Source: a virus (Duplodnaviria; Heunggongvirae; Uroviricota; Caudoviricetes). From it: DNA of 64,000 nt. This document shows positions 5,155-58,422 of the stretch, piece by piece. The number at the start of each line of letters is the position of its first letter. The stretch's first letter is position 1. The notes under the pieces were generated by a model. That model was not told the DNA's origin, made no database searches, and worked only from the letters and a program-made list of their open reading frames with translations. Location: IMG/VR virus record IMGVR_UViG_3300042569_001383, positions 24,125 to 88,124 of that record; one strand, given 5' to 3'. Made by a program: the position numbers and the translations under genes.

Positions 5155-5163
5155 AATATGTTT

Positions 5164-7362: not shown

Positions 7363-7374
7363 GATTATATTTTA

Positions 7375-7389: not shown

Positions 7390-7426
7390 ATATTTATACG
7401 ATTCCAAGCAAAGTGCCATTTCCTAT

Positions 7427-24934: not shown

Positions 24935-24935
24935 G

Positions 24936-26437: not shown

Positions 26438-26440
26438 GTT

Positions 26441-27070: not shown

Positions 27071-27100
27071 ATTGTTTTATTTATAATAAATATTTAATGA

Positions 27101-33402: not shown

Positions 33403-33404
33403 GT

Positions 33405-33620
33405 TTATAGTTTATATTTTTTGCGATATTGTTCTTCTAATTGTTTACCTAATCCAATTTCTAATATTACAGCATTATCCGGAATGCCGATTAATTTTGT
33501 TGCATCTAAAATATCATCGATTGTCTTGTTCCGGAACGATTTCATTTTAGTTTTTGCATTGCTTCGAGAAGAAGTTTTAAAAACTACAGTTACGGTACTT
33601 TTATGATATTGTATAGACAT
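33405..33620 (-). CDS. hypothetical protein
   Basis: 71 aa ORF. Confidence 0.25.
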   Translation of the reverse strand: MSIQYHKSTVTVVFKTSSRSNAKTKMKSFRNKTIDDILDATKLIGIPDNAVILEIGLGKQLEEQYRKKYKL

Positions 33621-33841
33621 TATTTAGATTTTAATTTAATTGGCTGAAATTCTTCCGGCACTGCGCCACAATCATCACAACGAAATACCGGAATTGGAAC
33701 CATTGTGTCTTTATCTGCGCCAGTTAACAATTTAGATACCTTGTTAATTGCCGTAACTTGACGAAAATACATTCCATCGCACGCTTTACAGATAATTGGT
33801 TGCATATCCGTCGGATTGATGCCTTTTGCTATTAAACTCAT
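33620..33841 (-). CDS. zinc-ribbon protein
   Basis: CKAC ... CDDC four-Cys arrangement in 73 aa. Confidence 0.35.
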   Translation of the reverse strand: MSLIAKGINPTDMQPIICKACDGMYFRQVTAINKVSKLLTGADKDTMVPIPVFRCDDCGAVPEEFQPIKLKSK

Positions 33842-41109: not shown

Positions 41110-41616
41110 TTAATTTAATTTATAAACATCTGGTAATTCTCTTTGAATTCCGTTATTATCTAATCCATAGCCCAAAATCCACTCATCATCAATTTCAAAT
41201 CCACAAAAATCAGTTAAATCTACACCATTTTTACGTTTAAACAAAGTAACAACTTTTACCTCAGCAGGTTGGCGACTATTTATCATGAACAATGCTTCTA
41301 GAATAGTAGAACCAGTATCACAAATATCGTCAACTAAATATACTTGTTTGTTGTGTAAATCTAACTCTAAATCCTTAAGACAAATTACGCCACCAGAATT
41401 GTCTTGTCCACTATATGATTTTAAACGTATAAAATCTAATTCACTCGTAACACTTAATGCACGAGTAAGATCCGAAAAGAAATGTATTGAACCATTTAAA
41501 ATGCAAATCATTACCGGTGGTAAACTTGATTTTGATTTTCGATAATCTTGTGTAATTTCAACTGCTAGTTGATATACTCGATTTGCGATTACATCTTTTG
41601 TAATGAATTTTTCCAT
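41110..41616 (-). CDS. hpt: hypoxanthine-guanine phosphoribosyltransferase
   Basis: PRPP-binding motif VYLVDDICDTGSTI. 168 aa type I PRTase. Confidence 0.8.
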   Translation of the reverse strand: MEKFITKDVIANRVYQLAVEITQDYRKSKSSLPPVMICILNGSIHFFSDLTRALSVTSELDFIRLKSYSGQDNSGGVICLKDLELDLHNKQVYLVDDICDTGSTILEALFMINSRQPAEVKVVTLFKRKNGVDLTDFCGFEIDDEWILGYGLDNNGIQRELPDVYKLN

Positions 41617-41822
41617 AAACGATATATTCCGTAAAGATTGATTGCTATGATAACTAAACTTAAAACCATATGACTGATATTGTTAATATGCAAATCATAT
41701 ACAATCCAACCGATATCGCCTGATATCCAAGTTATCATTGCGGCTTTATTATATCCACGTGCATTAGCAACATAGCCAACTAATACCAATGCCGTGCTTA
41801 CCCATCCTAGAATTTCTATCAT
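41589..41822 (-). CDS. small membrane protein
   Basis: 77 aa with two hydrophobic helices. Confidence 0.3.
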   Translation of the reverse strand: MIEILGWVSTALVLVGYVANARGYNKAAMITWISGDIGWIVYDLHINNISHMVLSLVIIAINLYGIYRLWKNSLQKM

Positions 41823-42118
41823 GGTTTCAAATTTATCATTGCAATTTCATGTTCGCGAACTAGAATAAAATCGGTTGATCCTAATTGTACTTTCTTTTGT
41901 GAACCTAAATTACCAGAATAAATTTTAACTCGGTCTCCGGATTTTACAGTCATAGGAATTTTATTTCCGGTTTGAGTAAATAATCCATCTCCTACTGCAT
42001 AAACATCACATTCGATATAATCATCCAATGAATTCATAATGATAATACCACTTTGAGTTTTATCTTGTTTTTCTAATTGTTTTAGGAGTACTTGATCTCC
42101 AATTGGTTTCCATTCCAT
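41819..42118 (-). CDS. groES: co-chaperonin GroES (Cpn10, functional analog of T4 gp31)
   Basis: 99 aa. MEWKPIGDQVLLKQLE ... SGIII parallels GroES MNIRPLHDRVIVKR ... GGIVL. Mobile loop and roof hairpin spacing are conserved. Confidence 0.7.
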   Translation of the reverse strand: MEWKPIGDQVLLKQLEKQDKTQSGIIIMNSLDDYIECDVYAVGDGLFTQTGNKIPMTVKSGDRVKIYSGNLGSQKKVQLGSTDFILVREHEIAMINLKP

Positions 42119-42133
42119 AACTTATTCCTATTT

Positions 42134-42385
42134 TTATTTATTAAACATTTCCGTAACTGATTGTGGTGTTATATTGCTACCAACCAATCTTCCCGTAACT
42201 GTGCCGTTATTATCAATTATAACAACACACGGTACATTGCGAATACCATATTGTTCACAAGTTGATTTATTTGTATCAACATCAATGAATTGTACCGGCA
42301 ACGTTTGTGATAATTGTTGCATTTTTGGTTTTATCATTTTACATGGTCCACACCATTCTGCCGTAAAATATAATATTTTTTTCAT
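42134..42385 (-). CDS. trx: thioredoxin
   Basis: WCGPC active site, 83 aa. Confidence 0.85.
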   Translation of the reverse strand: MKKILYFTAEWCGPCKMIKPKMQQLSQTLPVQFIDVDTNKSTCEQYGIRNVPCVVIIDNNGTVTGRLVGSNITPQSVTEMFNK

Positions 42386-43171
42386 TTATACTCCTCGTTT
42401 CGTATCAAATGCAATGATGTGGTCTCTTCCGGTCATATTATAACCTTTTTCTGCACACATATCAAATACAATTGGATACATTTTTATTAATTCATCTCTA
42501 GTGTCGCCAGCTGGCATTATGTATGTTTTATGTTTTGGAATACCCATTTCTACTCGGAATGTTTCAATTTCTTCTAAATTTTCCGGTGTTCCATCCCATA
42601 CTGGTTTATAATGATAATCATGATGATATGCAATCATTTTTGCAATATTTTCTCGATGCAACCTAAATTTATTATGTTGCTTAATCATACGTTCATCAAC
42701 TACGTCACCTAATGGTGTCGTTGCTCCAATTACCGGTACCGAGTTATTAAATTTAGGAGATAATGAAACTAAGTCAAATGGAATTTCAGTTTCAACGTAA
42801 TGTGAGCCTTCTGTCTCAATTGTGGTAATGATACCACGCTTGCTAGCAAACATAGTCAATTCATTCATTAATGCCGGGTGCATTGTCGGAGAACCGCCTG
42901 TAATCATCATTTCTTTAACGTGAGGATTAGCATCATATATTGCAATGATATCATTGAATGTGAAAGTTCCTTTTTCCGGATGTATACTAGTATACCAACT
43001 ATCACACCAACCGCCTTCACCAAAATAGCATCTATGAGTGCATCCCGTTGTTCTTACTGCAATTGTAGGTCTGCCAAATCGACTGCCTTCGCTTTGCACA
43101 CAACGATACAATTCAATGATTGGTAATGTTTTATTGTAATCTGTAATTCTATTAGAATGGGAGGTCGTCAT
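42386..43171 (-). CDS. queE: 7-carboxy-7-deazaguanine synthase QueE (radical SAM)
   Basis: QSEGSRFGRPTIAVRTTGCTHRCYFGEGGWCDSW parallels E. coli QueE QGEG ... G.P..F.R..GC ... C.WCD. ITGGSP cluster motif. Confidence 0.8.
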   Translation of the reverse strand: MTTSHSNRITDYNKTLPIIELYRCVQSEGSRFGRPTIAVRTTGCTHRCYFGEGGWCDSWYTSIHPEKGTFTFNDIIAIYDANPHVKEMMITGGSPTMHPALMNELTMFASKRGIITTIETEGSHYVETEIPFDLVSLSPKFNNSVPVIGATTPLGDVVDERMIKQHNKFRLHRENIAKMIAYHHDYHYKPVWDGTPENLEEIETFRVEMGIPKHKTYIMPAGDTRDELIKMYPIVFDMCAEKGYNMTGRDHIIAFDTKRGV

Positions 43172-43499
43172 GTTCTTCCTGTATTATTAATGTATCAAGT
43201 CTTTTAACTAATTGTGCGAACTGCGTTTCCAGGTTAATAAGTCTTTGATGTAATTCCGTTAAATTATTTAAAGGTGCAGTGGGTGTAGGTTCTTTGCCAA
43301 AATATTCATCTAAGAATGATACTGGATATGTAGCTACTGAAGTAAATTCTGTCGTTTGCAATGCTTCCGGTAACGGTTCATATACAATTTTAATTCGCTT
43401 TGCCTTTGCTGCTGCGTTAACTTCTCGTCCTAAACCAGATTGTTTAGATGCTTGTCCTCTATATGTATACAAGGACATGTATTGTTCATTACTCTCCAT
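43152..43499 (-). CDS. hypothetical protein
   Basis: 115 aa ORF between queE and queD. Confidence 0.3.
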   Translation of the reverse strand: MESNEQYMSLYTYRGQASKQSGLGREVNAAAKAKRIKIVYEPLPEALQTTEFTSVATYPVSFLDEYFGKEPTPTAPLNNLTELHQRLINLETQFAQLVKRLDTLIIQEEHDDLPF

Positions 43500-43974
43500 A
43501 AATTGCTGAGTTTTTATTATGTTCGTTAAATTCTACTTGAGTAACACGTACTCTATTATTTGTTTCTTCTAGTACAAATTCATTTACTTTATCGTAGATG
43601 TATTTTGCGAATTGTTCTGCTCCGGTAGCAGGAATAATTCTTAGCTGGATAAGTTCTATTTCGTTCATTGCTTTAAAGTATGGCAACAAAGGATCATCTT
43701 CAGCTATAATTGTAGTGTGATCAAACGTATGATCCATCCATGCTTTAGGATTCATTCCTCCAATAGTACATTTAGCACGTTTCATACCACCAAAATCCCA
43801 GACCCAATTTTTTTCATCTAGTTCACCTTCAAATGTGATTTTAAATGAAATGCCATACCCGTGTAAGAATTTGCAATGTGTATCTTCTGCTCGCCATTGA
43901 CGGAAACAAGTTGAGTAACCGTCGAATAATTTTGTTGAATTATATTTTGCCATTTTATCCTTCTTTACTATCAA
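43489..43974 (-). CDS. queD: QueD-like 6-carboxy-5,6,7,8-tetrahydropterin synthase (T-fold)
   Basis: CKFLHGYG resembles the CxxxHGH zinc motif, with the second His replaced by Tyr. Size and context fit. Confidence 0.55.
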   Translation of the reverse strand: MIVKKDKMAKYNSTKLFDGYSTCFRQWRAEDTHCKFLHGYGISFKITFEGELDEKNWVWDFGGMKRAKCTIGGMNPKAWMDHTFDHTTIIAEDDPLLPYFKAMNEIELIQLRIIPATGAEQFAKYIYDKVNEFVLEETNNRVRVTQVEFNEHNKNSAIYGE

Positions 43975-44365
43975 ATTTATAATCGTCTGGAGTTGATGTT
44001 TGCATATTGCATTTTACTACATTATACGTGGTAAATGGCCTAGTAACTATTTTTACAATGTCATTGCGTTTTAATAATTCTAATTCCGGACACTCTAATG
44101 ATAACATGATGCGACAACGATTTAACATTGTCGGCGGAATTGATTTTAATAAATCAGGTGTCACTTCCAATGTAACGATGTATCGCATATCTAACATTTC
44201 TTCGATAATTTGCCAATTTGGCTTATCTGTTATGTAACTAATACACAAGTAAATATGTGGATATTCATCCCAATTATTTGGTATTTGAGTTCTAACAAAT
44301 ACCGTAGCGATATCCGTTAATGGACCTTCTACCTCTTTGCCGTAAAAATATTCTACTCCAAACAT
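43955..44365 (-). CDS. hypothetical protein
   Basis: 136 aa. Motif A lies upstream at 44375-44390. Confidence 0.35.
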   Translation of the reverse strand: MFGVEYFYGKEVEGPLTDIATVFVRTQIPNNWDEYPHIYLCISYITDKPNWQIIEEMLDMRYIVTLEVTPDLLKSIPPTMLNRCRIMLSLECPELELLKRNDIVKIVTRPFTTYNVVKCNMQTSTPDDYKFDSKEG

Positions 44366-44374
44366 ATGTTTTTA

Positions 44375-44390
44375 TTTATTATATGAAATT
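44375..44390 (-). promoter_or_regulatory. motif A variant upstream of 43955-44365 (head of the queD-queE segment)
   Basis: Plus-strand tttattatatgaaatt. Confidence 0.4.
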
Positions 44391-44392
44391 AA

Positions 44393-45313
44393 TCAATCAT
44401 TCCAAACCAAAAAGCTACGAATAAATTTCGTATCTCCATTTCTATGCAAAGATTCAGCAAATGCTTGTTTATAATCTTTAGAATCATATGCATTGGTCCA
44501 AACCCAATCAACATCTAAAACTCCTTGTTCAATTAGTTCTGGAGTTCGTTTCATTATGATAGGAAACGATTTGGATCTAGGAGATGGAAATGAATATTGT
44601 AAATTTTTCCATAATGGTTTCCAAAATGTGGTATGTACTGGTTGATTGAATGATGCAGCCAAATATATATGTGCATTATCATTAGCTACATCCGTTATGC
44701 GTTCGTAATTTTCTTGTTTACCACTTAATTCCAAAATGACGTCATATGTATCACAAGTGTCAAACGTAACAAATTTGGCGCCAATTCGGTTCCATTGTTC
44801 TTCATTATGATTTCCAATTACATGAATTGATAACTTTGGCAATATGTGTTTAAGATATTGTGCAGCTAAATTAGATACAAAACCAGATCCAACTATTAGA
44901 ATATGTTTCATATCAACATGATGATTCCAAAAATATAGTATTTGATTTGCAATGTTTACCGAACACGCAACTGGCTCAATGATATATTTTGTACTCAATT
45001 CTGGTACTCGAGTTGTATTAGGTTCCGTTGCATAAAAATATGGAGAATATGCTAAATCATCTCGAGATGCAACAAAATCGCCTACTTTGAATTCCGTTAT
45101 ATCGGCTCCAACTGCAACCACTTCGCCTACCGATTCGTGTCCGAAACAACCATATGGAATTTCAATTTTACCTGTGTATTGGTCAATATCACTTCTGCAA
45201 ATGCCGGTATATTTAGTTTTGATTAAAATTTGATCGGGACGCATTTCGCCTAAATCGAAATCATAATCATTGATAGTTTCACCTCCGAAACTATGAAATA
45301 TGGTTGTTTTCAT
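44393..45313 (-). CDS. zinc-dependent medium-chain dehydrogenase/reductase (alcohol/sugar dehydrogenase-like)
   Basis: GHESVGEV catalytic zinc motif and GICRSD. Second Rossmann motif IVGSGFVS. Confidence 0.7.
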   Translation of the reverse strand: MKTTIFHSFGGETINDYDFDLGEMRPDQILIKTKYTGICRSDIDQYTGKIEIPYGCFGHESVGEVVAVGADITEFKVGDFVASRDDLAYSPYFYATEPNTTRVPELSTKYIIEPVACSVNIANQILYFWNHHVDMKHILIVGSGFVSNLAAQYLKHILPKLSIHVIGNHNEEQWNRIGAKFVTFDTCDTYDVILELSGKQENYERITDVANDNAHIYLAASFNQPVHTTFWKPLWKNLQYSFPSPRSKSFPIIMKRTPELIEQGVLDVDWVWTNAYDSKDYKQAFAESLHRNGDTKFIRSFLVWND

Positions 45314-46240
45314 TTAATATATTATGTTTTTGATTTGTGTAACTGTTTGAATTGATTCCGTAAAGTTTTCTAATATCGAGTGAATTTCAGTATCATATGC
45401 CTGATGTTTTTTATATGTTGCGTCATCTGCAAACATGTATTCTTGCAACATGGAATTATATGCCGATTCCGGACATAACCCAGATATGAAATCAAATACT
45501 TCTCCGGATTTCATATGAAATTTCCATTTTACTACATCGGAGTCTGTATCATATTTCCATGTACTTATGCATTGTATATCAATTCCGTTTGATTCAGCAA
45601 ATACAATAGCACAATCATCTACATCGTAAATTCCATTTGCATGAAATTGTCCGTAAGACGACTCGTTTGTTACAGTATCCATATCATATTGCTGATAACA
45701 AGTTGCGTGTATATTTTGCAAAGGTTGATTGGTAACGCGTTGTGCGACACTTAATAAATGTGGCATCAAATCACGTGAAACTCCGCCACCTGCTAATTTT
45801 TTATTAGTAAACCAACTGCCTGCTCCTGGAATTCTATTTTGATTCACCCAAAACAATTGCAAAGCTTTGATATTCGATGTATCAATAGAATCAAATATGA
45901 TGCGATGTTGATTGTTTTTTACCATGAACAATTTAGAGTTAGGATATGTTTCGTAAAAAGATATCCAACGGTGAACATCAGCAAAACCAGGCTTTTCTAC
46001 TACAATTGTAGCTACGCCATGTTTTGCCATAATTTCAGCAACAGTTTCGTGTGTAAAATTTGGAGTACAAACAATACCCATATCTACATGTATGTTTCGC
46101 AATGCATCTTCAATATATAAAAAATCAGCGTTTGCGTCTGGATTGATGTCTACCGTAATTACATTCCATCCGATAGATTTACATACATCAACATACAATT
46201 TACCAATACCTAATCCAACAATTGCTACTGTCTTATGCAT
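45314..46240 (-). CDS. Gfo/Idh/MocA-family NAD(P)-dependent oxidoreductase
   Basis: N-terminal VAIVGLGIGK Rossmann motif and VVEKPGF (the EKP signature of this family). Confidence 0.7.
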   Translation of the reverse strand: MHKTVAIVGLGIGKLYVDVCKSIGWNVITVDINPDANADFLYIEDALRNIHVDMGIVCTPNFTHETVAEIMAKHGVATIVVEKPGFADVHRWISFYETYPNSKLFMVKNNQHRIIFDSIDTSNIKALQLFWVNQNRIPGAGSWFTNKKLAGGGVSRDLMPHLLSVAQRVTNQPLQNIHATCYQQYDMDTVTNESSYGQFHANGIYDVDDCAIVFAESNGIDIQCISTWKYDTDSDVVKWKFHMKSGEVFDFISGLCPESAYNSMLQEYMFADDATYKKHQAYDTEIHSILENFTESIQTVTQIKNIIY

Positions 46241-46937
46241 TGTAACCTTTTATAAATTCGTAAAATTCAAATCGAGTGCTAGAATCAGTCATAAATGCAC
46301 CCGATAACTTTGCAGTTTTCATTGATGCACCACGATGTTTTACTCCTCGACATGATACACAGTTATGAGTTGCTTCAATCATAACTGCTACGCCTTTATT
46401 GTCAGTAATAAGTTCGTCGATTGCATGTTGTATTGCCACTGTTAATTGTTCTTGAATTGCTCCGCGTCTTCCAAAATGTTCAACTACTCGATTCAATTTA
46501 CTTAAACCTACTACATTGCCATTTTCTGCTGGAATATATGCAATATGAACTAAACCTTCAATTGTTTGATGATGGTGACTACACATCGATGTTAATGGAA
46601 TTCCTCCTTCAAACACAATTCCATCATATCCATCGCTAGGGAAAGATGTGATATCAGACATTGGTTCGTAACGACCTTTCCATAAATCATTAACATATGC
46701 TTTTGCTACACGACGAGGTGTATTATCCGAGTTTGGATCATTTTCCCACGCAACACCTAGTGCACGTAAAAACTCACCATAATGATGAGCAGCATCATCG
46801 ATAATCTCTTGTTTCTCTACATCGGTTAATCTTGCATCTGGTCCGAATATTATTTGTTTTGTTGCTAATTGTGTTGAGATGCCATTAGCAAAACCAGATT
46901 TAACTAATTCTAAATTTTTTCTTTGTTCTTGAGTCAT
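46233..46937 (-). CDS. folE: GTP cyclohydrolase I FolE
   Basis: MCSHHHQTIEG (CEHH motif) and GLVHIAYIPAENGNVVGLSKLNRVVEHFGRR (GTP-CH-I signature). Confidence 0.9.
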   Translation of the reverse strand: MTQEQRKNLELVKSGFANGISTQLATKQIIFGPDARLTDVEKQEIIDDAAHHYGEFLRALGVAWENDPNSDNTPRRVAKAYVNDLWKGRYEPMSDITSFPSDGYDGIVFEGGIPLTSMCSHHHQTIEGLVHIAYIPAENGNVVGLSKLNRVVEHFGRRGAIQEQLTVAIQHAIDELITDNKGVAVMIEATHNCVSCRGVKHRGASMKTAKLSGAFMTDSSTRFEFYEFIKGYNA

Positions 46938-47868: not shown

Positions 47869-48090
47869 TTAATAAATATCTTTTAGGATAGTTTCGCCTT
47901 TTTTATGTTTAGGCTCATAAGGACAATGTCGACATCCGTTGCCACAACATGTTCCGCGTCTTCGATGATACTCTTCAGTCATTACTCGATAACCGTTAGT
48001 ATCATAATAAAAGTCCGTTGGAAGGAGCTTGTTGCCAAACTCCTTCACGAACTGTTGTTGTATCCAATCTTTTGATGCCGGTTGTATCAT
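47869..48090 (-). CDS. small Cys-rich protein
   Basis: CCGNGCRHCPY cluster. Immediately upstream of the RNR. Confidence 0.3.
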   Translation of the reverse strand: MIQPASKDWIQQQFVKEFGNKLLPTDFYYDTNGYRVMTEEYHRRRGTCCGNGCRHCPYEPKHKKGETILKDIY

Positions 48091-49946
48091 TATTTTATCT
48101 CACATGCACCGCCTGCACACGCTAACTCGCCTGACAAGTCGGTATTATCATCTAATTCAATTACTTGACTCAAATCAATGTTATGAAGTGATTGCATCAT
48201 CGTGTCATATGTTTCTTTGCTACAATCTTCGAAGGGAGCTTGCGTATACGTTCCTCCATTATAGGGTAAAACTGATAAACCGTTGTAATGATCTCTGTTT
48301 TCCCACATCCATTCTCCAGCCAAGTCCCATTCATCATCTTTCAACGATACCGTTGCTGATACGTTGTGTGTATTGTTTCCAGTTCTATGTCCCGGTTTAA
48401 CCCATTCCAAATGTACTTTTTTAATACGGTCCAATAATTGGAAAGGAGATTCAAAACGCATAATTGCGCCTTCTGGTGCTTTTTGTGGAATTGAAATAAC
48501 TGCAGTATCGTGTGGACGGAAATATTCATCTTCAATCAATTCCGGATGGTTTGTTGCTAAATATGAATAAATTGCTTCATTTTTTCCTACACGGATACGA
48601 CGAATATAATAATCATTGTGCCATGCGTGTATTCCTGAACTCGTTCCTAATGCTAATGATGTTGTTCCTGCTGGTTTAACCGTTGTAGTACGTGCTGAAC
48701 GATTAATTCCGATTAATTCTGCTACTCTTGCATTTTCTTCTTTAACTGCTTTTGCTGCGGATTTCATATCATAGCCTAATACGGTGCCAGATCCAATACC
48801 TGTCATTGATACACCAATTAATGCATCTTTTTCAGTGGTTCTTTGCCAAATTGGACGTAGATAATGGAAACTAGTATATCCTGCTTGAAGCGTACCAATA
48901 AATGCAGCTGCGCGAACTCGTGCTTCTAAATCTTCTTGTGATTCAATATCAGATGCATTTACTTCGCATAAATTACAGAATTGGAAAGGACGTAATGCAA
49001 TTTCACAACATGGATTAGTTCCCCAATCTTTATCATTTGTCAAATAAATTCCAGGTTCTCCAGCTCCAGATAATTCAACACGTTTCCATAAATCCATAAA
49101 GAATTCTTTGGTAAGTTTATGGCGCATCAATGTTGCGGAGTTATTTGCACGACCTCTTTGTGGATTTGTTTCCCACCAATTTCCTGATTTACATGCAATC
49201 ATTTCTTCATCGTCTGCAGAGAACAAACTAATCAATGCTGCTCTACGAATACCACCTGCTAACACTGCATCAGCAACATGGCATACCATATCATGTACTT
49301 CGATTGGAGATAGTTTATCGCCATCTTCTTTTGCATCCAAAATACCTTGTAATTTAATCAAACATTCTTTTAAAGGCTGCGGTCCTGGAGCTTTTCCTCC
49401 CGATGTAACCAATCTTGCTCCTTTTTGACGAATGTCGGAAAAATCAAAAGTAAATGATGAACCTCCTGTGAAATATGATTTAACGAGTACTTTAACAGCA
49501 TCTGCCCAACCTTCAATTGAATCTGCAATCAAGTATCGACGATTCTTTTTAGGATTTGGTTTGTGTATTTCTGGTAATTGTTCAACATGATGTTTTTGAA
49601 CCGAATAACCTACTCCAGTTCCACCTAATAAAAGGAACATTGCTTCACCAAATGCTCTGTGGTCATCAATTGGTAAATATGCACAATTATAAATTCTATT
49701 AGGCGAAATTTCAATTGGTTTTCCTCCGAATTGCAAGCTACGCATCGATGGCAATACTTTTTTATCATAAACAAAACGATATGCAGATTCAATTTCCGTT
49801 TCTAGTTCCGGATATTTTTTAATGTGCATTTGCTTGTTTCTTGTAACTAATTCTTCCCATGTTTCTCGACGATTGAGTTCCGGAAGATATTTTGCATACT
49901 TCATGTATACAGTAATCTCGCTTAAAATTTTGTTGGAAATTTCCAT
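48090..49946 (-). CDS. ribonucleotide reductase catalytic subunit (likely class II, adenosylcobalamin-dependent; no NrdB seen)
   Basis: NPCCEIALRPFQFCNLCEV parallels the NPCGEI ... CNL active-site finger. C-terminal ACAGGACEIK redox Cys pair. 618 aa. Confidence 0.75.
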   Translation of the reverse strand: MEISNKILSEITVYMKYAKYLPELNRRETWEELVTRNKQMHIKKYPELETEIESAYRFVYDKKVLPSMRSLQFGGKPIEISPNRIYNCAYLPIDDHRAFGEAMFLLLGGTGVGYSVQKHHVEQLPEIHKPNPKKNRRYLIADSIEGWADAVKVLVKSYFTGGSSFTFDFSDIRQKGARLVTSGGKAPGPQPLKECLIKLQGILDAKEDGDKLSPIEVHDMVCHVADAVLAGGIRRAALISLFSADDEEMIACKSGNWWETNPQRGRANNSATLMRHKLTKEFFMDLWKRVELSGAGEPGIYLTNDKDWGTNPCCEIALRPFQFCNLCEVNASDIESQEDLEARVRAAAFIGTLQAGYTSFHYLRPIWQRTTEKDALIGVSMTGIGSGTVLGYDMKSAAKAVKEENARVAELIGINRSARTTTVKPAGTTSLALGTSSGIHAWHNDYYIRRIRVGKNEAIYSYLATNHPELIEDEYFRPHDTAVISIPQKAPEGAIMRFESPFQLLDRIKKVHLEWVKPGHRTGNNTHNVSATVSLKDDEWDLAGEWMWENRDHYNGLSVLPYNGGTYTQAPFEDCSKETYDTMMQSLHNIDLSQVIELDDNTDLSGELACAGGACEIK

Positions 49947-50038: not shown

Positions 50039-51394
50039 TTAACCTAAACTTCCACCCAAATCTTTGAATTTTTGAGCTAAATTTTTCTTAATTAAATTCT
50101 CGCCAGTTTTCATTGTTTGGGTTGTTTGCTTGCCTTGAGTTGTTTGTGGTTCAAAGAATTGGAATTGCCCATTATTAGTATTAATTTTACTTGGAAGCGT
50201 AATTCCATCTGGTCCGAAACGATTCTTAATAACATGTCCACGTCCTGTACCTGACATTTTATCTTCAACTTTTCTAGAAAGTGACATTAAGAAATCCGCA
50301 ACCATTACTTTACCATATGAAGATGCTATTTTGTCAGCTTCGATAACATCTTCCTCCAAAGCAGATCTACCTGCTTGTGAAGCGGTCCAAATAGGGATAT
50401 CGTACTCTCCTGCCATTCCGCGTAATTCTTCATATAATTCTTCAAGTGCTTCATGTTTGTCTTTTTTAGCATTAATTTTTAATAAATCGCCGTAATCTAC
50501 AATAACTAATTTTGGCGTTTTACCCATCATTATGGTTTTTTCAAAATGTGCTTTTAATCCTAATACACCGACTGATTTTGTTGGAAAATATTTTACAATT
50601 AAATCGCCACGCAATGAATCCATTTTCTCTTGCACCGTGTCTTGATGATGTTTCAAGGTTTGTGCATTGATACCCGTTAATACCGAGTCATATCGTTGTC
50701 CGACATAATTTTCATTGAGCTCCAATGTATAATGTATAACGGTATGTCCGGCTTTAATTGCATTTGCACCAATATTAATAAGCATCCACGATTTACCAAT
50801 ACCTGCAGGTGCCATTACTACTCCTAATTCACCTGGAGCTAAACCGCCGTCCATTAAATCATCTACTACGTCCCATCCCGTTGTAATGGTATGTCGCGAC
50901 GCCTCCGCATATCGTGCTGAAATATTTGCTTTGTAATCCAAACCAATATTGGTGTCAGCACCAGCTTTCATAGCCCCATCAATCTTAGTTTTTATCTCAT
51001 CGTAGTTACCCATTTTAAGTAAACCTACCGAATCCATAATTGCACGCTTAATTTCTTGATTCTTACAAAATTTAAGAATTTCATCTTTCACAAAAGAAAG
51101 GTCATCGGATTCCATGTAGCGGAATACTTCCTTTAATTGTTCTAAGATTGCCGTCTTTAATATGTCATTATCAATTTCAGTAATTTTAACCTTAAGTACG
51201 TCTTTTGAAGGAGGTGTTTTGTATTCTCTGAAGTGAGTAAGAATGATTTCCAATAACCAACTATTTGCATCTGATTCAAAATAGTCTGCTTGTATTATAT
51301 CTGCTATTTGTTGTAGGAATGCTCTGTCCGTAAACATTGCAGCTAAAACTTTTACTTGAAAGCCGTAGCCGTATTCCGATAATTTATCTGTCAT
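50039..51394 (-). CDS. replicative DNA helicase (DnaB/T4 gp41-like)
   Basis: Walker A GVVMAPAGIGKSW, Walker B LVIVDYGDLL, and the RecA-like C-terminal domain pattern. Confidence 0.85.
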   Translation of the reverse strand: MTDKLSEYGYGFQVKVLAAMFTDRAFLQQIADIIQADYFESDANSWLLEIILTHFREYKTPPSKDVLKVKITEIDNDILKTAILEQLKEVFRYMESDDLSFVKDEILKFCKNQEIKRAIMDSVGLLKMGNYDEIKTKIDGAMKAGADTNIGLDYKANISARYAEASRHTITTGWDVVDDLMDGGLAPGELGVVMAPAGIGKSWMLINIGANAIKAGHTVIHYTLELNENYVGQRYDSVLTGINAQTLKHHQDTVQEKMDSLRGDLIVKYFPTKSVGVLGLKAHFEKTIMMGKTPKLVIVDYGDLLKINAKKDKHEALEELYEELRGMAGEYDIPIWTASQAGRSALEEDVIEADKIASSYGKVMVADFLMSLSRKVEDKMSGTGRGHVIKNRFGPDGITLPSKINTNNGQFQFFEPQTTQGKQTTQTMKTGENLIKKNLAQKFKDLGGSLG

Positions 51395-51429: not shown

Positions 51430-52479
51430 TTAAATTTGTGTTTGTTTTGCAAAAGCGTTTAATGATAACCATGTATTAGTTAACCACTCTGGTAAATTTT
51501 TCATTACAGACCACATTTTATCTTCATAAAACAGTCTTTGAAATTCACTGCGATTAAGTTCTGGTATAGGTTGTCCTACAATGCCTCGAATTTTTGTTGC
51601 CGTTTGCGCTGGAATATCTAACAATTTAATATTCATTAAACGATAATTTTTATCAATTACATCGTAATTTGCTAGTACTTTTTGATGATTTTTCGACTCC
51701 GTTAATAAATTACATTTATTGCGTAAATCATCCAATGTAAATTCTTTGGTGCTAGCAAGTTCCGGAAACGTTTTCAATATAGTTTTTGGACCAAAACCAT
51801 CGACACCTGGAATATTATCTGATGCATCGCCTGTAAATGTTCGATACACAACATAGTTCATTGGGTGTACTCCAAATTCTTCTAACAATGCCGCTTCATC
51901 ATACATTTTCTTTTTAATAGGTGACCATACTTGTATAGCAGGACTTATTAATTGATAAAAATCGCGATCCGTTGATACAATTGTCATTTTTTTGCAAACA
52001 TCTTGATACATGTCAGCAACGTATGCAATTGTATCGTCTGCTTCAATTCCATCCATTGATATAAATGTAATTGGCAAATTATCTAAGTATGAAATCAACC
52101 GACTAAATTGATGTCGCATTGATTCTTGTTCTTGTTCCAATGTAGTTTCGTGATGATCGTGTCTTCGCAATTTAGTTTTATTGGCTCTATTGCCTTTGTA
52201 ATCACCGTATATTTTTTTGCGTTTTGCAGATCCACCTTTACCATCAAATACGATAATCAATCGAGTTGGGCGAAAATCACGCACAGTTTTTCCAACAGAA
52301 TATAAAAATCCGGATATTCCTCCGATGTGGTCACCATCCTCGTTATAACTAGGCGTGGCGCCAAAGCTACGAATAAAAGTATTCAAGCCGTCAACCAACA
52401 TGATATGATCATCGACGTTTGACGGACTTGAAAGCTTTTCTTTTTGTAACTCTTTAAACAATTTTTGATACTTATTCAT
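51430..52479 (-). CDS. 5'-3' exonuclease / flap endonuclease (T4 RNase H-like)
   Basis: IMLVDGLNTFIR N-terminal motif and acidic clusters (DGIEADD, TDRDFYQL) of the FEN family. Confidence 0.8.
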   Translation of the reverse strand: MNKYQKLFKELQKEKLSSPSNVDDHIMLVDGLNTFIRSFGATPSYNEDGDHIGGISGFLYSVGKTVRDFRPTRLIIVFDGKGGSAKRKKIYGDYKGNRANKTKLRRHDHHETTLEQEQESMRHQFSRLISYLDNLPITFISMDGIEADDTIAYVADMYQDVCKKMTIVSTDRDFYQLISPAIQVWSPIKKKMYDEAALLEEFGVHPMNYVVYRTFTGDASDNIPGVDGFGPKTILKTFPELASTKEFTLDDLRNKCNLLTESKNHQKVLANYDVIDKNYRLMNIKLLDIPAQTATKIRGIVGQPIPELNRSEFQRLFYEDKMWSVMKNLPEWLTNTWLSLNAFAKQTQI

Positions 52480-53642
52480 TATCCTTCTTCGTCGTAAACT
52501 TCATCGGTGATAATTACATCATCAATTCCGCCATCGATTCCTGCTTGATATTTGAAAATATACGCATCGCAAATTCTCTGATATAACCGTTCTTTAATTT
52601 CCGGGTGTTCTATCACCTTTTCCATAAAGTTTTTTGATTGAAATTTAACTTCGCCATGAACAACCCCAGTTTCAATATCTACATCTTCCAATGTATAATG
52701 TGCTCCAGATTGTTTAACTAAGTCAAATTTCTTCATTGTTTCTAACCAACCTCCATAATTGTCAATTCCGCTATCATAATAGATTTCGTAATTTACTTTT
52801 CTATGTGGCGGTCCCATTCGATTTTTAACAACTTGAACTTCGGTTTTACTTCCTACTACTTGTTCAACGCCATTAATTTTTGCTTTAATCATTCCGGTGT
52901 TTTTAAGACGCAATCTAACCGATGCGTGGAATGGAATTGCTTTACCACCCGCAGTTGTCCATTGGTCTCCAAATGAAACTCCCATTTTTGTACGAAGCTG
53001 ATTGGTAAATATCAAACAAATTCTTTCTCTTGCAATCCAATTGGTTACTTTACGCATTGCTTTGGATAAGATAATTGATTTTGATGTTGCATACCCATCT
53101 TTATCGTATTCAGCTGACATTTCTATTTTTGTCGATGCACCCATGATTGAATCCACAATAATCGTAACTAAACGATCTTTGTCTGATTTACGTACTTGTT
53201 CTACAATTGTTTCGATTGTTTCAAATATTTCTTCAACCGTTTCCATTGGAACATACAACATGGTTTTTAAATCAACTCCAATTGCTGTCAAAAATTCAGA
53301 ACTAGTTGCAGCTTCAGTATCAATATAAACTGCCAATCCACCTTTTTTCTGCGTTTCTGCTAAGGTATGTGACGCTAGCAATGATTTACCCGATGCTTCT
53401 AAACCGGTAATTTCAGTAATCCGCCCGACAGGAAATCCTCCATTAGGGCGGTTTGAGATTGCTAAATCAAGTGAGTCGCATCCTGATGAAATCCATTCTT
53501 TAACGTTGCTAGGAGAATCATCATCCCCATCTAAAAAGAATGCAGTTTTAAGTGCTTGACCTTTAAATTGTTTGTTGATACTATCTGCTAACGTGTTTGC
53601 TAAACTGTCTTCCAGTTCTGACTTACTTTTTGTTTTAGCCAT
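52479..53642 (-). CDS. UvsX/RecA-family recombinase
   Basis: Walker A GLEASGKS, Walker B IIVDSI, RecA-like L1/L2 region. Confidence 0.85.
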   Translation of the reverse strand: MAKTKSKSELEDSLANTLADSINKQFKGQALKTAFFLDGDDDSPSNVKEWISSGCDSLDLAISNRPNGGFPVGRITEITGLEASGKSLLASHTLAETQKKGGLAVYIDTEAATSSEFLTAIGVDLKTMLYVPMETVEEIFETIETIVEQVRKSDKDRLVTIIVDSIMGASTKIEMSAEYDKDGYATSKSIILSKAMRKVTNWIARERICLIFTNQLRTKMGVSFGDQWTTAGGKAIPFHASVRLRLKNTGMIKAKINGVEQVVGSKTEVQVVKNRMGPPHRKVNYEIYYDSGIDNYGGWLETMKKFDLVKQSGAHYTLEDVDIETGVVHGEVKFQSKNFMEKVIEHPEIKERLYQRICDAYIFKYQAGIDGGIDDVIITDEVYDEEG

Positions 53643-53652: not shown

Positions 53653-54444
53653 TTACTTGAATAAATCATTAAATGCAGCAGAAACGTCTTCTACTTTAGT
53701 TGCAGCTGGTGCAGTTGCTTTTGAAGTTTTTGCTGGTGCCGTTGTTGGTGCATCATCTTCATCTTCATCTTCGGTTGAACTTACATCAGAATCAGCATTT
53801 TCTGGATTCATCCATTCTGTTAATGCTTTTTCCAATTCGTCATACGTTGGCTCCGGGAATAAATCAGTGATTTGTGGCTGATTCATAATTTTTTGTGCAA
53901 TCTCTTTGTCTTCGGTTGCCGGTTGTGTGTTAGGTTTAACACGAATTGATGTTTTAGGATAATTTGCTCCTTCTGCTGGAGTAAATTCTACATCGATATC
54001 ACGACCATTCATTAAGTCGGTAATATCACCGTAATCTGGATCTGAAATAATTGATAATAATTCAGTGTAGATTTGTTTTCCGAATCCCCAGAATTTAACT
54101 CCTTCTGATTCTTTTCCACGAACGATTACAGGAACATAAGTTCTCATTTTCGGTTCGATTTTACGACCCATTAACCACTCATCTTTGTCGCCAGTTTTCT
54201 TAAGTTTGTCTGCGAATTCAACGATTGGATCTGGGTTTCCAAATGTGATTGGAGATAACATTGAACGTTTTGCAATGTCATAATGAAAATACAATTCTAA
54301 GAACGGATTTTCTTTTCTGTGTACGTAAGGTACGATTCGGATTCTTGTTTTGCCTGATTCAGGTTTCCACAAATTTTGTTTTTTGTCATCAGCTTTGTTT
54401 AACTGATTTAGTTTTGCCTTAATTGCTGTTAAATCTAACGCCAT
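53653..54444 (-). CDS. single-stranded DNA-binding protein (T4 gp32-like)
   Basis: N-terminal KAKLNQLNK ... WKPESGKTRIRIVP parallels the gp32 N-terminus. Acidic C-terminal tail (EDEDEDD). Sits between uvsX and downstream genes. Confidence 0.55.
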   Translation of the reverse strand: MALDLTAIKAKLNQLNKADDKKQNLWKPESGKTRIRIVPYVHRKENPFLELYFHYDIAKRSMLSPITFGNPDPIVEFADKLKKTGDKDEWLMGRKIEPKMRTYVPVIVRGKESEGVKFWGFGKQIYTELLSIISDPDYGDITDLMNGRDIDVEFTPAEGANYPKTSIRVKPNTQPATEDKEIAQKIMNQPQITDLFPEPTYDELEKALTEWMNPENADSDVSSTEDEDEDDAPTTAPAKTSKATAPAATKVEDVSAAFNDLFK

Positions 54445-54824: not shown

Positions 54825-55211
54825 TTACTTCCAAGAAATTTTCTTGAAAAATACAAGGTCAATTACCCGGTATCCTGAATCTTCAGTTAATATAAATGAA
54901 TTATGATACATCGTCCAATCCAGTTGGTAAGATTTATCTAACACGCCGTTGTTTACTGCCAAGATTATCTCATTCAAAGCATTTACTGTATACAATGTGT
55001 TTGTCTCTTTTTTACGATGTATGCTAATAGTATTCTGTCCGCGTTGTGTACCAACATCTGCATTATATGTGCAATACAAATTATCCGTTGCATCTGCATT
55101 AGCAAATACAAATATTCTGCGTTCTGGTATTATGTAATTTTGTTGTACGTAATCTACAACTATGTTTAAATCTGATTTATGTGCAAAAGTGCACAATAAT
55201 TGTGTTTTCAA
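54825..55211 (-). CDS. hypothetical protein
   Basis: 128 aa ORF. Confidence 0.3.
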   Translation of the reverse strand: MKTQLLCTFAHKSDLNIVVDYVQQNYIIPERRIFVFANADATDNLYCTYNADVGTQRGQNTISIHRKKETNTLYTVNALNEIILAVNNGVLDKSYQLDWTMYHNSFILTEDSGYRVIDLVFFKKISWK

Positions 55212-56452
55212 AATTCATATTCCTCGGTTATGTCGGTGTCGGTTAAATCAATTTTATCTGCACCAATTGCTTTTTCAATAATACGAATTTTGCCGGCATC
55301 TATTACTACATAACGGAAATCATTGGTAACTCGTATACGATCTTTTCTGAATACAATGAATTGCAAATCTCCAGCAACAATAGAATCTACAGCTTCTTGC
55401 AAATCCGTATCCAATGCATCAGGATTTCTAACGTATTTTAAACGTCGCAATTCTGCATTAATATATGTTATATCTCGGCTACCATCTTCAATTGGTTTAA
55501 TAACTAATGATCCATCCGGATTTTTTTTCAATGGTTCAATTGACATTTCTACCGGTGTTGCATTTGGTCCACGAAGTATAACATTGGTATATCCTTGAAT
55601 GTCGGAATTCAATGCATTTGCTTCGCGATAAAATTGCATTAAATAGCCTTTATCTTTCATGTTTAAATTGCCGGCTAAAATAAATGCACGGCGGTCATCT
55701 AAATATGCAATTGCATCAAGTAACGGTTGGTCGAAATATTTATGGAAATCATATTTTGGATTTTCTACTGTTCCGCGTAATTGATCTATGCGTTTCAATG
55801 TAGTTACAATTTCATCCCAAAATTTGAATCTGGTAACACTTCCTTTTGTTCCCAAACGAATTGATTTTGCATTGCCTTTTCCACCCGTATAATCTTTGAT
55901 TTCGTATGGTTGTCCGTTAGCTGTCATGTCGAAGGAAGAACCACCTCCGTTTATTTGCGAGCCATCAATTAACGTAGCCAAGAAAATTTCGCCTTTTCCT
56001 AATCCTTTTGGTTCCAATCTAAATAAATCATGTGCTAAACCGCTACGAATGTTGATTTGATTCAATGCATCTTCTGAAATACCATTTTGTGAATACAACA
56101 TGTTTGCAAATTCGATGCATTGTTCTTGTTGCATGCTATTTAAAAAATTCAATGTAATGCCATCTGCTTCTGTTGGTAGTAATCGTAAAAATGTTGCAAA
56201 TTGTTCCGATTTGCCAGCTTCACCAATTGCACTAGTTAACATTTGATTTTCTATGGAATCAAACTGAATCGATTCGGCAATCAATTCTTTTACATTGCCT
56301 TGTGCACGTTCAACAATTCGACGTGCTTCGTCATTTGATATGTTTGCTACTTCGAGAATAACATGATACAATACCTCATAATCCTTTGCTGTCGTAGGAT
56401 ATCCTTTTGGTAGTCTGTAACACCACTCCGTTAAAATTAAATCTATATTCAT
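55208..56452 (-). CDS. hypothetical protein with a possible PD-(D/E)XK-like nuclease core
   Basis: GEIFLATLIDG ... DMTANGQPYEIKD gives a D-x8-E-x-K arrangement after a beta-strand-like segment. 4 bp overlap with the downstream PolA-like gene. Confidence 0.3.
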   Translation of the reverse strand: MNIDLILTEWCYRLPKGYPTTAKDYEVLYHVILEVANISNDEARRIVERAQGNVKELIAESIQFDSIENQMLTSAIGEAGKSEQFATFLRLLPTEADGITLNFLNSMQQEQCIEFANMLYSQNGISEDALNQINIRSGLAHDLFRLEPKGLGKGEIFLATLIDGSQINGGGSSFDMTANGQPYEIKDYTGGKGNAKSIRLGTKGSVTRFKFWDEIVTTLKRIDQLRGTVENPKYDFHKYFDQPLLDAIAYLDDRRAFILAGNLNMKDKGYLMQFYREANALNSDIQGYTNVILRGPNATPVEMSIEPLKKNPDGSLVIKPIEDGSRDITYINAELRRLKYVRNPDALDTDLQEAVDSIVAGDLQFIVFRKDRIRVTNDFRYVVIDAGKIRIIEKAIGADKIDLTDTDITEEYEF

Positions 56453-57771
56453 ATTGTAATAATATTCATTTTATTATAATTATTGCCCGCTTTAATTTTA
56501 ACCGGAAAATTGCCTTGTTCTAATACATGTTTAATGGTTGGTAATAACACCTTTGCTTCGGAAAATTCAATATCAAACAATACAGAGTCATATGTATATA
56601 ACACCATGCAACTTTGATGACCATTTAACACATCTTGCACTTGCCGTAGCTTTTGTACAGATACTTCGGTTTCTACTGCTTGCAAATAGTAATTGAATAG
56701 CTTGTTTGCTGTCATGTTTTTCAAAGTATCTGCCGTTAATCGTCGTTTAATTATAGGGGTTTCAATGTAATGTTTAGATTTCCATGTTGCCCATAACTTG
56801 TATATAAAATCATTAACTAGTTTAAAAAATGGAATAGTTAAAAATTCAGAATCAATTCCACCGTAAAGTAGCCGGAATGTTATAGATTTGCTTTCTTCAC
56901 GTTGCGTGTCTGATAATTCCATTACACCAAAATAAAATCGTCCTAAATAATCATGTATTGATGATGTCGGCAATTCGTATTGCACTAATCTGGCAATCAA
57001 TCTAACGTGGTATGAATCGAAATCCATTTCCACCAATGCCCCATTATCAAAACGACTACAAAATGCACTACGAGTTCCATCTTCTTTGTTCATTGCTGCA
57101 AAATTGAAACCTCTAAACGCATTGCTAGGTCGACCCGTTAATGTATGATAATTATACTGCGTATACACTTTGTTTTGCGTAATCAATTCTGGCATTCGAA
57201 ATATATCGGTAACTGCTAATCCGGCAGATTCTAATTTAGCAAAAACTTGTGGATAAGTTTCATTGAATTGGTTGTATGAATCAGTCATTTTTGCATTGAT
57301 ACACATTGGCCAAGCATAGTGCCGGATCTTTTGACACATCTCTAAATGTTTTTGCAATGGAACAATTGCATTAATATGTTCCAAAGCAACATGCCGTCTC
57401 CAATAAAAACGATGGGCTGCAGTTGGATAATGCGATTCATCATAGGCTTCTCCGTATGTATACCACCACAACGTTTTAATATCCCAAACCTCGGTGTTTC
57501 CTCCCATATGAAGCCATTGCTTCTTGTCATGGATAAATATATTGCGTAATTCTAAAAACTCCGGGACAAGTTCTGGAAAGCCCCGTAATTGTTCCGTATG
57601 CCGTATTGGAATTAAATATTCTTCATCTGAATCTAGAAAAATATAAATTGCAATCAATTGAGTTTGAGATGCATGCATCACAGGACTTGCAAGTATTGGA
57701 ACTAACAATGTCTTGTACTCATGTATTCGATTCAATATGTTGCGTACGTCTTGTTCATGATCCAGTATCAT
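56449..57771 (-). CDS. family A (Pol I-like) DNA polymerase domain protein, minimal
   Basis: MDFDSYHVRLIARL (motif A, DYSQIELR-like), REESKSITFRLLYGG (motif B, RxxxKxxxFxxxYG) and VLYTYDSVLFDI (motif C, HDE-like). The track start at 57798 is a TTG extension. The first ATG at 57769-57771 directly follows motif A (57775-57790). Confidence 0.5.
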   Translation of the reverse strand: MILDHEQDVRNILNRIHEYKTLLVPILASPVMHASQTQLIAIYIFLDSDEEYLIPIRHTEQLRGFPELVPEFLELRNIFIHDKKQWLHMGGNTEVWDIKTLWWYTYGEAYDESHYPTAAHRFYWRRHVALEHINAIVPLQKHLEMCQKIRHYAWPMCINAKMTDSYNQFNETYPQVFAKLESAGLAVTDIFRMPELITQNKVYTQYNYHTLTGRPSNAFRGFNFAAMNKEDGTRSAFCSRFDNGALVEMDFDSYHVRLIARLVQYELPTSSIHDYLGRFYFGVMELSDTQREESKSITFRLLYGGIDSEFLTIPFFKLVNDFIYKLWATWKSKHYIETPIIKRRLTADTLKNMTANKLFNYYLQAVETEVSVQKLRQVQDVLNGHQSCMVLYTYDSVLFDIEFSEAKVLLPTIKHVLEQGNFPVKIKAGNNYNKMNIITI

Positions 57772-57774
57772 ACT

Positions 57775-57790
57775 ACAATTATATGAAAAA
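57775..57790 (-). promoter_or_regulatory. motif A variant immediately upstream of the PolA-like gene ATG
   Basis: Plus-strand acaattatatgaaaaa. Confidence 0.35.
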
Positions 57791-57798
57791 AAATTCAA

Positions 57799-58422
57799 TT
57801 ATCCAAGATTTATGTCACGTGGAACAACAAAATCAGTATCAGTATAATATTGCAATGGATTTGTTAATATCTGAGAAATTCCTGGCAAAGTTGTTTGCAA
57901 TTGCGTTATGGCATTGGTATTTAATTCAACAACTCCTGGCTTGTATATGGGTTGATACACAGTTTCAGTTTCTCCGGCAATATACCATTTACATGATGCA
58001 GCCGTATATAAATTTATATCTAGTTCATTGTTGTAATTAACATATTGTTTTTGTGAAATTTCAAAATATGCCGGTTCATTGACTTTTTTTAAAAAATATC
58101 TAGTAATGAATTTGTTAGCAATGTCTAGTGCTGTTATGATTGGTTGCGTTGACCGAATTGAATTGTAATTAGGTTTACTTTGTTTGCGTATATCATTATA
58201 CGTAGCAACTGACTCGGGTTCTTGTACTAGAACATACAATGGTTGAGATGTAGATTCATTCCATGTTGCACCTGTATATGTTTCTTGAGTTACAGTATAA
58301 CGATGATACAATCCTTTGTATTCTTGTTTGTCTGCAGTTTGCCATTCCGCACCAAACGTATACAAATTGTTTTGGATTTCGGATTCATTGTATTTTAATT
58401 TTATTCTGCTCATATCAATCAA
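57799..58422 (-). CDS. hypothetical protein
   Basis: 207 aa ORF. Confidence 0.35.
   Translation of the reverse strand: MIDMSRIKLKYNESEIQNNLYTFGAEWQTADKQEYKGLYHRYTVTQETYTGATWNESTSQPLYVLVQEPESVATYNDIRKQSKPNYNSIRSTQPIITALDIANKFITRYFLKKVNEPAYFEISQKQYVNYNNELDINLYTAASCKWYIAGETETVYQPIYKPGVVELNTNAITQLQTTLPGISQILTNPLQYYTDTDFVVPRDINLG

Follow-up and report, generated by a model that had tools for sequence, protein, structure and literature searches.

The stretch of DNA analyzed here, referred to as the window, comprises 64,000 nucleotides of the Caudoviricetes virus record IMGVR_UViG_3300042569_001383 in IMG/VR (positions 24,125 to 88,124). On its minus strand, at 56449-57771, lies a gene for a protein of 440 amino acids (aa), which by its sequence almost certainly belongs to divPolA1, a family of reduced family-A DNA polymerases. 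The gene stands near the head of a long series of minus-strand genes. In the direction of transcription, these are an open reading frame (ORF) of 207 aa, divPolA1 itself, ORFs of 414, 128, and 83 aa, and genes for gp32, RecA, a Pol I-type 5'-3' exonuclease (FEN), DnaB, and ribonucleotide reductase (RNR). After RNR, the series continues with FolE, two oxidoreductases, QueD, QueE, a phosphoribosyltransferase, PolB, a glycosyltransferase, a 420 aa ORF, a sliding clamp, a dUTPase, and a clamp loader. A preliminary description of the window had proposed that it encodes a second, reduced family-A polymerase, devoid of exonuclease activity and of a 5' nuclease domain, beside a complete family-B polymerase. 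Both the pairing and the reduced domain content were borne out by our analysis; the detection of the second polymerase is correct and far from what chance would produce.

The ORF containing the gene spans 56449-57798 and encodes 449 aa when counted from a TTG codon, or 440 aa when counted from the ATG at 57769-57771; in both cases, it ends at the TGA stop codon at 56449-56451. The preference for the ATG that had been voiced earlier holds up on several grounds. Close and distant homologues are all about 440 aa long and share the N-terminus M-I-(L/V)-D. In the orthologue at locus L003, which is 70% identical, an in-frame stop lies 9 codons upstream and no alternative start codon is found. In addition, an NCBI record holds the exact 440 aa product, on a contig of 144,950 bp. 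The TTG-initiated extension of 9 codons (57772-57798) is an AT-rich 5' region that is not conserved, and is probably untranslated. A 16-mer that had been singled out as "promoter-like motif A" showed no recurrence above chance (9 matches, where 8.0 were expected). Sigma-70-like matches in the region were likewise at the level of shuffled sequence, with one of them at 57805-57778.

Membership of family A was supported by the Pfam profile DNA_pol_A (PF00476), which had been named as the profile to check, with 39.2 bits against a gathering cut-off of 34.3 (E 5e-10). When a profile of the divPolA1 family was compared with PDB sequences, it matched the polymerases of Aquifex Pol I, Klenow, Bst, and Taq with E-values of 1e-7 to 1e-4. 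The family profile was needed for these matches, as a phmmer search of PDB with the single sequence found no polymerase. A PHROG scan gave a marginal "DNA polymerase" match only, and no match was obtained by megablast when the region was compared with 50,697 phage records. By tblastn, the window protein is 33.6% identical to gene 1 of the Flavobacterium phage vB_FspM_immuto (host Flavobacterium sp. LMO8; called immuto here) over residues 26-431 (92% of its length; E 5e-59), and the two proteins, of 440 and 441 aa, align end to end. A recent origin of divPolA1 by duplication of the resident polymerase was considered and rejected, because a profile comparison with the regular family-A polymerase (PolA) of immuto was insignificant (probability 0.45%).

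The divPolA1 family was described by Yutin et al. (2024, Virol J 21:200, PMC11348598), with immuto gene 1 and CAB4155247 of the uncultured Caudovirales phage LR796625 as references, the latter of which was used for structural modelling. According to these authors, the proteins combine a palm in which the catalytic residues are kept with a truncated thumb and an exonuclease domain in which all three catalytic Asp residues are replaced. They were reported from 14 genomes of 155-190 kb, which also encode a "regular" DNA polymerase of family A, B, or C and carry conserved replication genes downstream of divPolA1. The family, its architecture, and its dual-polymerase context are therefore already published, and the gene in the window re-identifies a known family. 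The 414 aa neighbor of the window gene is 63% identical to CAB4155248.1, whose accession directly follows that of the modelled protein, and it is thus very likely, judging by this match, that the window belongs to the same sub-clade as the structural representative of that study.

The family is far larger than the published 14 genomes. Clusters at 90% identity numbered 904 for the window protein and 1,464 for that of immuto, and nearly all had a length of 440-441 aa. An exhaustive search of 1.84 billion representatives yielded at least 566 clusters at 50% identity (E <= 1e-30), nearly all with lengths of 420-470 aa. Among phage records, 21 contained a divPolA1 match by tblastn. One of these is the 190 kb genome of the Microcystis phage Mel-JY01, in which the gene (PP395634.1, 50397-51623; locus L002, 7998-9224) is annotated as "hypothetical protein". 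In the same genome, FEN carries the annotation "DNA polymerase I", so that the second polymerase is hidden by the public annotation. Another is LR756508.1, an uncultured jumbo phage of 484 kb, which has an unannotated divPolA1 (locus L009, 13992-15350) together with the whole module of the 128 aa protein, gp32, RecA, FEN, and DnaB. Since a homologue occurs in a genome of this size, genome size is probably not a defining trait of divPolA1 phages.

The three peptides that had first been quoted as Pol I motifs (MDFDSYHVRLIARL, FRLLYGG, and YTYDSVLFDI) all lie within the ORF, and HMMER places them on motifs A, B, and C of Klenow. In this alignment, DFDSYHVRL pairs with DYSQIELRI in motif A, SKSITFRLLYG with AKAINFGLIYG in motif B, and LYTYDSVLFD with MQVHDELVFE in motif C. 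Motif A (LVEMDFDSYHVRLI, 56995-57036) contains D250, the equivalent of metal ligand D705, and H255, which replaces the steric-gate residue Glu710. Motif B (TQREESKSITFRLLYGG, 56857-56907) contains K295, F299, and Y303, equivalent to K758, F762, and Y766, while motif C (MVLYTYDSVLFDI, 56569-56607) contributes D395, equivalent to D882. Upstream of these, motif 2 reads TLTGRPSN (57121-57144; TGRLSS in Klenow), and its R214 aligns with R668.

Residue conservation was counted in 141 representatives of 50%-identity clusters. D250, D395, K295, R214, Q364, and H255 were invariant, and F299 (96%), Y303 (99%), and Y394 (140 of 141, 99%) nearly so. In Klenow numbering, the metal-binding Asp pair, the general acid Lys758, Phe762, and Tyr766 are kept. 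The same is true of the minor-groove readers R668 and Q849, whose counterparts are R214 and Q364. The retention of these residues points to selection on catalysis with DNA, and divPolA1 is likely to be catalytically active.

Other positions of the active site depart from the family-A pattern. Neither the canonical H-D-E of motif C nor the steric-gate Glu of motif A was found; Y394-D395-S396 and H255 take their places family-wide. Position 396 was Ser in 113 representatives, Ala in 23, and Gly in 5, and never Glu. The position of Klenow R754 (residue 291) was Tyr in 106 of 141 (75%) and Arg in only 7 (5%), although the window protein itself has the full R-x3-K-x3-F-x3-Y-G of motif B (R291, K295, F299, Y303-G304). 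One reading of these replacements is that divPolA1 does not in practice function as a DNA polymerase, but as a catalytically crippled scaffold of the replisome, or as an RNA-making enzyme resembling a primase or RNA polymerase. The invariant His in place of the steric-gate Glu, the predominance of Tyr at R754, and the Y-D-S/A in place of H-D-E would all fit, as would the finding that no primase was detected within the window. The related divPolA2 has also been suggested as a possible RNA polymerase (PMC11348598). We regard such a function as very improbable.

N-terminal of the active site, the protein is strongly reduced. Palm and fingers (residues 196-440; 56452-57186) are nearly full size, being about 35 residues shorter than those of Klenow in the alignment. 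Only 196 residues, however, precede the HMMER-aligned polymerase core, compared with 327 in the Klenow chain. The first part of these, approximately residues 1-135 (57367-57771), corresponds to a vestigial 3'-5' exonuclease-fold domain. A DEDD site requires four invariant carboxylates. Among the 141 representatives, E/D60 and D97 were the only conserved acidic positions in this region, and among 24 diverse members the only invariant residues were H33, H58, D97, and P138. With too few conserved carboxylates for a DEDD site, the sequence indicates that the exonuclease fold is present but inactivated, and that the proofreading site is lost. A profile of the N-terminal domain alone found no solved exonuclease in PDB. 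Between the exonuclease fold and the palm, the secondary structure of the model leaves just two helices (139-159 and 164-183), and the thumb (approximately residues 136-195; 57187-57366) is therefore considered truncated.

Downstream of divPolA1, the window encodes a replication-recombination module. It consists of a gp32-type single-stranded DNA-binding protein (53653-54444; Pfam gp32 and synteny), a RecA-type recombinase (52479-53642; Pfam RecA, E 3e-53), FEN as a separate gene (51430-52479), and a DnaB-family replicative helicase (50039-51394; Pfam DnaB_C), all on the minus strand. FEN matched 5_3_exonuc_N with 114 bits, while its C-terminal SAM-fold domain, 5_3_exonuc, scored 39 bits, just below the 40-bit cut-off. 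These four genes lie downstream of divPolA1 in the window, immuto, Mel-JY01, L003, and LR756508, and in 58 of 58 loci of the window's clade. The latter were retrieved in a scan of viral contigs with enough flanking sequence, which returned the window's own clade only, so that the counts are within-clade statistics. In all 58 clade contigs, the order of the 207 aa ORF, divPolA1, the 414 and 128 aa ORFs, gp32, RecA, FEN, and DnaB was maintained as far as each contig extends.

The slot after DnaB varies between close relatives. In the window (48090-49946, minus strand) and in Mel-JY01, it is filled by a single RNR protein of 618 aa with the insertion domain of class II (B12-dependent) enzymes, while L003 (17861-20658) and immuto have the small and large subunits of class I. 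By sequence, RNR seems to have been swapped in situ, in analogy to the exchange of polymerases discussed below.

The regular polymerase of the window is a family-B enzyme of 838 aa (38580-41096, minus strand; Pfam DNA_pol_B and exo1). Its description as complete was confirmed: ExoI FDIE, ExoII NTDNYD, and ExoIII YNMVD are intact, as are DLTSLYPS, KVLLNSFYG, YTDTDS, and KKRY, consistent with a proofreading polymerase. It is accompanied on the same strand by a sliding clamp (35204-35914; PHROG 223, "DNA polymerase processivity factor"), whose homologue in Mel-JY01 adjoins PolB, and by clamp-loader subunits (32953-34764), with an AAA/RFC-like protein at 33838-34764 and a Phage_clamp_A protein at 32953-33402. 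By sequence, PolB, clamp, and clamp loader make up a T4-type holoenzyme set in the window, as they do in Mel-JY01. In immuto, the regular polymerase is instead a PolA of 778 aa, likewise located downstream of the cluster of FolE, QueD, QueE, and phosphoribosyltransferase. The two regular polymerases, of family A in immuto and of family B in the window, illustrate the polymerase swap described by Yutin et al. (PMC11348598).

The two polymerases also differ in their rate of change. Between lineages, divPolA1 proteins are 26-34% identical, compared with 40-56% for gp32, FEN, and DnaB. A comparison of the window with Mel-JY01 gave 45% identity for PolB and 26% for divPolA1. On these identities, divPolA1 is the fastest-evolving protein of the module.

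In our favored interpretation, divPolA1 would actively synthesize DNA on a DNA template, with low processivity (distributively) and without proofreading, and would work within the module it heads, together with the 128 aa protein, gp32, RecA, the Pol I-type FEN, and DnaB. Its task would most likely be short-patch synthesis: filling gaps after primer removal by FEN, extending recombination intermediates made by RecA, or both. Together with the separate FEN, it would equal a split, Taq-like Pol I, whereas bulk processive and proofread synthesis would fall to PolB, which is intact and has a clamp and clamp loader at its side. We put this division of labor forward tentatively, as a proposal whose chances are close to evenly balanced. 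An accessory role, rather than that of main replicase, is suggested by the DEDD site that is not intact, the truncated thumb, the intact PolB holoenzyme, the fastest evolution in the module, and the constant presence of FEN within it.

Several points weigh against this proposal. Four active-site residues of family A are systematically replaced (the steric-gate Glu by invariant His255, R754 by Tyr in 75% of representatives, and H-D-E by Y-D-S/A), and from these replacements, activity, rate, and sugar selectivity could differ from those of Klenow. FEN does not discriminate between roles, as most large lytic phages encode one. Nor is a separate gap-filling enzyme a strict necessity, given that T4-type phages fill gaps with the replicase alone. 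In the literature, divPolA1 is named only in the 2024 paper and its preprint, and no biochemistry has been reported for any member. Finally, Yutin et al. present the surroundings of divPolA1 as the conserved replication context, with the "regular" DNA polymerase being exchangeable among families A, B, and C and "less obvious" in its role (PMC11348598). This emphasis can be read as favoring divPolA1 as the constant polymerase of the replisome.

That reading, hinted at in the same paper (PMC11348598), is the main rival: the core of replication in this phage group would rest on divPolA1, with the exchangeable PolA, PolB, or PolC in an auxiliary role. In its favor, divPolA1 is the constant element, at the head of the conserved module of single-stranded DNA-binding protein, recombinase, FEN, and helicase, whereas the regular polymerase changes family, as seen between immuto and the window. 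A set of PolA, single-stranded DNA-binding protein, FEN, and DnaB-family helicase moreover resembles a T7- or T5-type replisome. However, a polymerase without a proofreading site is ill suited to replicating genomes of 145-190 kb or more. The truncated thumb points the same way, as deletion of the thumb tip in Klenow lowers DNA affinity and processivity, and so does the faster evolution of divPolA1 relative to the other module proteins and PolB. PolB, for its part, has intact motifs and its own clamp and clamp loader in both the window and Mel-JY01. We thus consider it unlikely, though deserving of attention, that divPolA1 is the core replicase, and retain the short-patch polymerase as our working interpretation.

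The conserved companion of divPolA1 is the gene for the 128 aa protein (54825-55211, minus strand), recognizable by the signature HRKKExNTxYTxNxLN. It follows divPolA1 in L003 (85% identity), LR756508 (47%), immuto (36%), and Mel-JY01 (34%), as well as in the 58 clade loci, and is better conserved between lineages (34-47%) than divPolA1 itself. Unannotated homologues are located at L001 1346-1801, L002 9275-9664, L003 12558-12944, and L009 16857-17246. Searches of Pfam, PHROG, and PDB profiles gave no match for this protein, which we consider a candidate accessory subunit. Because the 128 aa ORF accompanies divPolA1 in all four lineages examined, the conserved pair is divPolA1 and the 128 aa protein, with the nuclease-like 414 aa gene as a clade-specific insertion between them. 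A more far-reaching proposal, which we see as a rather unlikely one, is that the two form a two-subunit polymerase, in which the 128 aa protein offsets the truncated thumb in the manner of thioredoxin for T7 gp5. In this proposal, the remodelled active site would confer an unusual substrate range (ribonucleotides or modified nucleotides), and the enzyme, in place of the swappable PolA, PolB, or PolC, would be the constant core polymerase of a group of aquatic phages that is very abundant.

The 414 aa ORF (55208-56452, minus strand) overlaps the polymerase gene by 4 bp (ATGA). The overlap noted in the preliminary description is real, but the ORF, which had been called upstream, is actually downstream in the direction of transcription. 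The PD-(D/E)XK signature that had been noticed in it is plausible: E155, D175, and E184-x-K186, a probable core, show no variation among 40 homologues with identities of 59-87%, and recurrent but weak fold matches were obtained to restriction endonucleases and Hjc resolvases. These features, together with the ATGA overlap and the gene order kept in the 58 clade loci, fit a scenario in which the translationally coupled nuclease-like protein and divPolA1 act jointly in repair or end processing. The 414 aa gene is, however, missing in immuto and Mel-JY01. The supposed nuclease-polymerase pair is thus invariant within the window's clade, but does not hold as a general unit, and joint action of the two proteins seems improbable to us. 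An ORF of 428 aa in a similar position in Mel-JY01 was examined as a counterpart and found to be unrelated.

The N-terminal stretch of about 34 residues of the 414 aa protein (MNIDLILTEWCYRLPKGYP..., 56351-56452, minus strand) is 50% identical to that of a protein of 358 aa whose gene takes the same place in LR756508 (L009 15409-15522), and in which this common stretch is fused to an unrelated, highly acidic tail. Judging from this shared segment, it may be a portable interaction module.

Directly upstream of divPolA1 lies the 207 aa ORF (57799-58422, minus strand), for which no Pfam or PHROG match was found. Homologues stand directly upstream of divPolA1 in L003 (41% identity), Mel-JY01 (33%), and LR756508 (31%). 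In the window, the ORF stands at the border of the tail and baseplate genes and the replication module.

The preliminary description had also assumed a phage with hypermodified purines and had likened the extra polymerase to DpoZ, the dedicated polymerase of Z-genome phages. For immuto, the association of divPolA1 with 7-deazaguanine is real: this phage encodes FolE, QueC, QueD, QueE, QueF, and DpdA in addition to divPolA1, and in its DNA, fdPreQ1 takes the place of all deoxyguanosine (Cui et al. 2023, PMC10516641). The window contains FolE, QueD, and QueE, 66-74% identical to those of immuto, as well as a phosphoribosyltransferase (41110-46937, minus strand). DpdA, QueC, and QueF were not found in the window, either by tblastn with E-values up to 10 or by Pfam searches of all ORFs of at least 120 aa in which they could lie, and this includes the slot syntenic with DpdA of immuto. 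Hypermodified purines can therefore not be established from the window. It may be that the phage produces another 7-deazapurine, or that the genes for the missing steps lie beyond the window.

The place that DpdA, PurN, Tmk, and QueF occupy in immuto is taken in the window by a GFO/IDH/MocA oxidoreductase (45314-46240) and a zinc-dehydrogenase-like ORF (44393-45313). A weak QueC-like match at 45410-45754 lies inside the former and was discarded, as it looks like generic similarity between nucleotide-binding folds.

A polymerase dedicated to 7-deazaguanine DNA in the manner of DpoZ would serve in the copying or repair of templates with modified bases, or in the incorporation of modified nucleotides. 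In this case, divPolA1 would be expected alongside the modification pathway, as it is in immuto. Yet the complete genome of Mel-JY01 encodes divPolA1, PolB, clamp, and loader, and contains no FolE, QueC, QueD, QueE, QueF, or DpdA at E < 1e-3. Strict co-occurrence with dpdA is thus contradicted by this genome, and no dpdA was found within the window either. The fully substituted DpdA3 phages phiST and CP220 (PMC10516641) were not among the 21 records with a divPolA1 match. In addition, 7-deazaguanines enter existing DNA by base exchange, which is carried out by the DNA transglycosylase DpdA (PMC10516641), so that no special polymerase is needed. Taken with the fact that divPolA1, unlike DpoZ, is not the sole polymerase and has a dead exonuclease, these results leave the analogy unsupported, and we rate a 7-deazaguanine-specific function as the least probable of the alternatives considered here. 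The text supplements of Yutin et al. (2024) mention neither DpdA nor a primase.

Elsewhere on the minus strand, the window contains a large glycosyltransferase cluster (20673-29832), with members of families 1, 2, 4, and 25 and a Polysacc_synt_2 dehydratase/epimerase; immuto and Mel-JY01 have a glycosylation cluster syntenic with it. The region 3502-8590 begins with a GroEL-type chaperonin (3502-5118) that is 53% identical to that of immuto. After it come a protein of 732 aa, whose match to the CobT VWA domain is weak and below threshold, and a MoxR-type AAA ATPase. At 999-1736, a 245 aa protein with the head domain of poly(A) polymerases and CCA-adding enzymes is likely a tRNA nucleotidyltransferase.

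Beyond what was published in 2024, our analysis extends divPolA1 to a family much larger than previously reported, which reaches Mel-JY01 and a 484 kb jumbo phage, and identifies the 128 aa companion as its true conserved partner gene. It also put the DpoZ-like idea to the test and did not find support for it. The family is abundant, and marks large phages with two polymerases, one of which is freely exchanged among families A, B, and C. Knowledge of which of the two performs which task would explain how replisomes cope with such swapping. In addition, a Klenow-like enzyme that is minimal by nature, free of exonuclease, and altered at its steric gate could be of use in biotechnology.

Compared with the divPolA1 proteins described by Yutin et al. 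(PMC11348598), the window protein shows no categorical difference. It shares the length of about 440 aa, the Asp residues of the palm, the truncated thumb, and the inactivated exonuclease fold, and its gene likewise has a co-resident regular polymerase and a place at the head of the module of single-stranded DNA-binding protein, recombinase, FEN, and helicase. The 144,950 bp contig carrying the window copy, which may be incomplete, falls below the range of 155-190 kb. The barbavirus-type second PolA, divPolA2, has in common with divPolA1 that it is a diverged extra PolA beside a regular PolB and is without exonuclease activity (PMC11348598).

DpoZ, a family-A polymerase of the Z-genome phages of the phiVC8/S-2L type, is the phages' own replicative polymerase; its exonuclease is active, and its gene accompanies purZ. 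In contrast, divPolA1 is an additional polymerase beside the regular one, its exonuclease is dead, and it is found with or without a base-modification pathway. Taq and Bst, like divPolA1, have a vestigial exonuclease domain within the large fragment of a bacterial DNA polymerase I. Relative to the large fragments of Klenow, Taq, and Bst, however, divPolA1 is about 130 residues shorter N-terminal of motif 2, through its trimmed exonuclease fold and truncated thumb, and differs in having His for the steric-gate Glu, Y-D-S/A for H-D-E, and mostly Tyr for R754.

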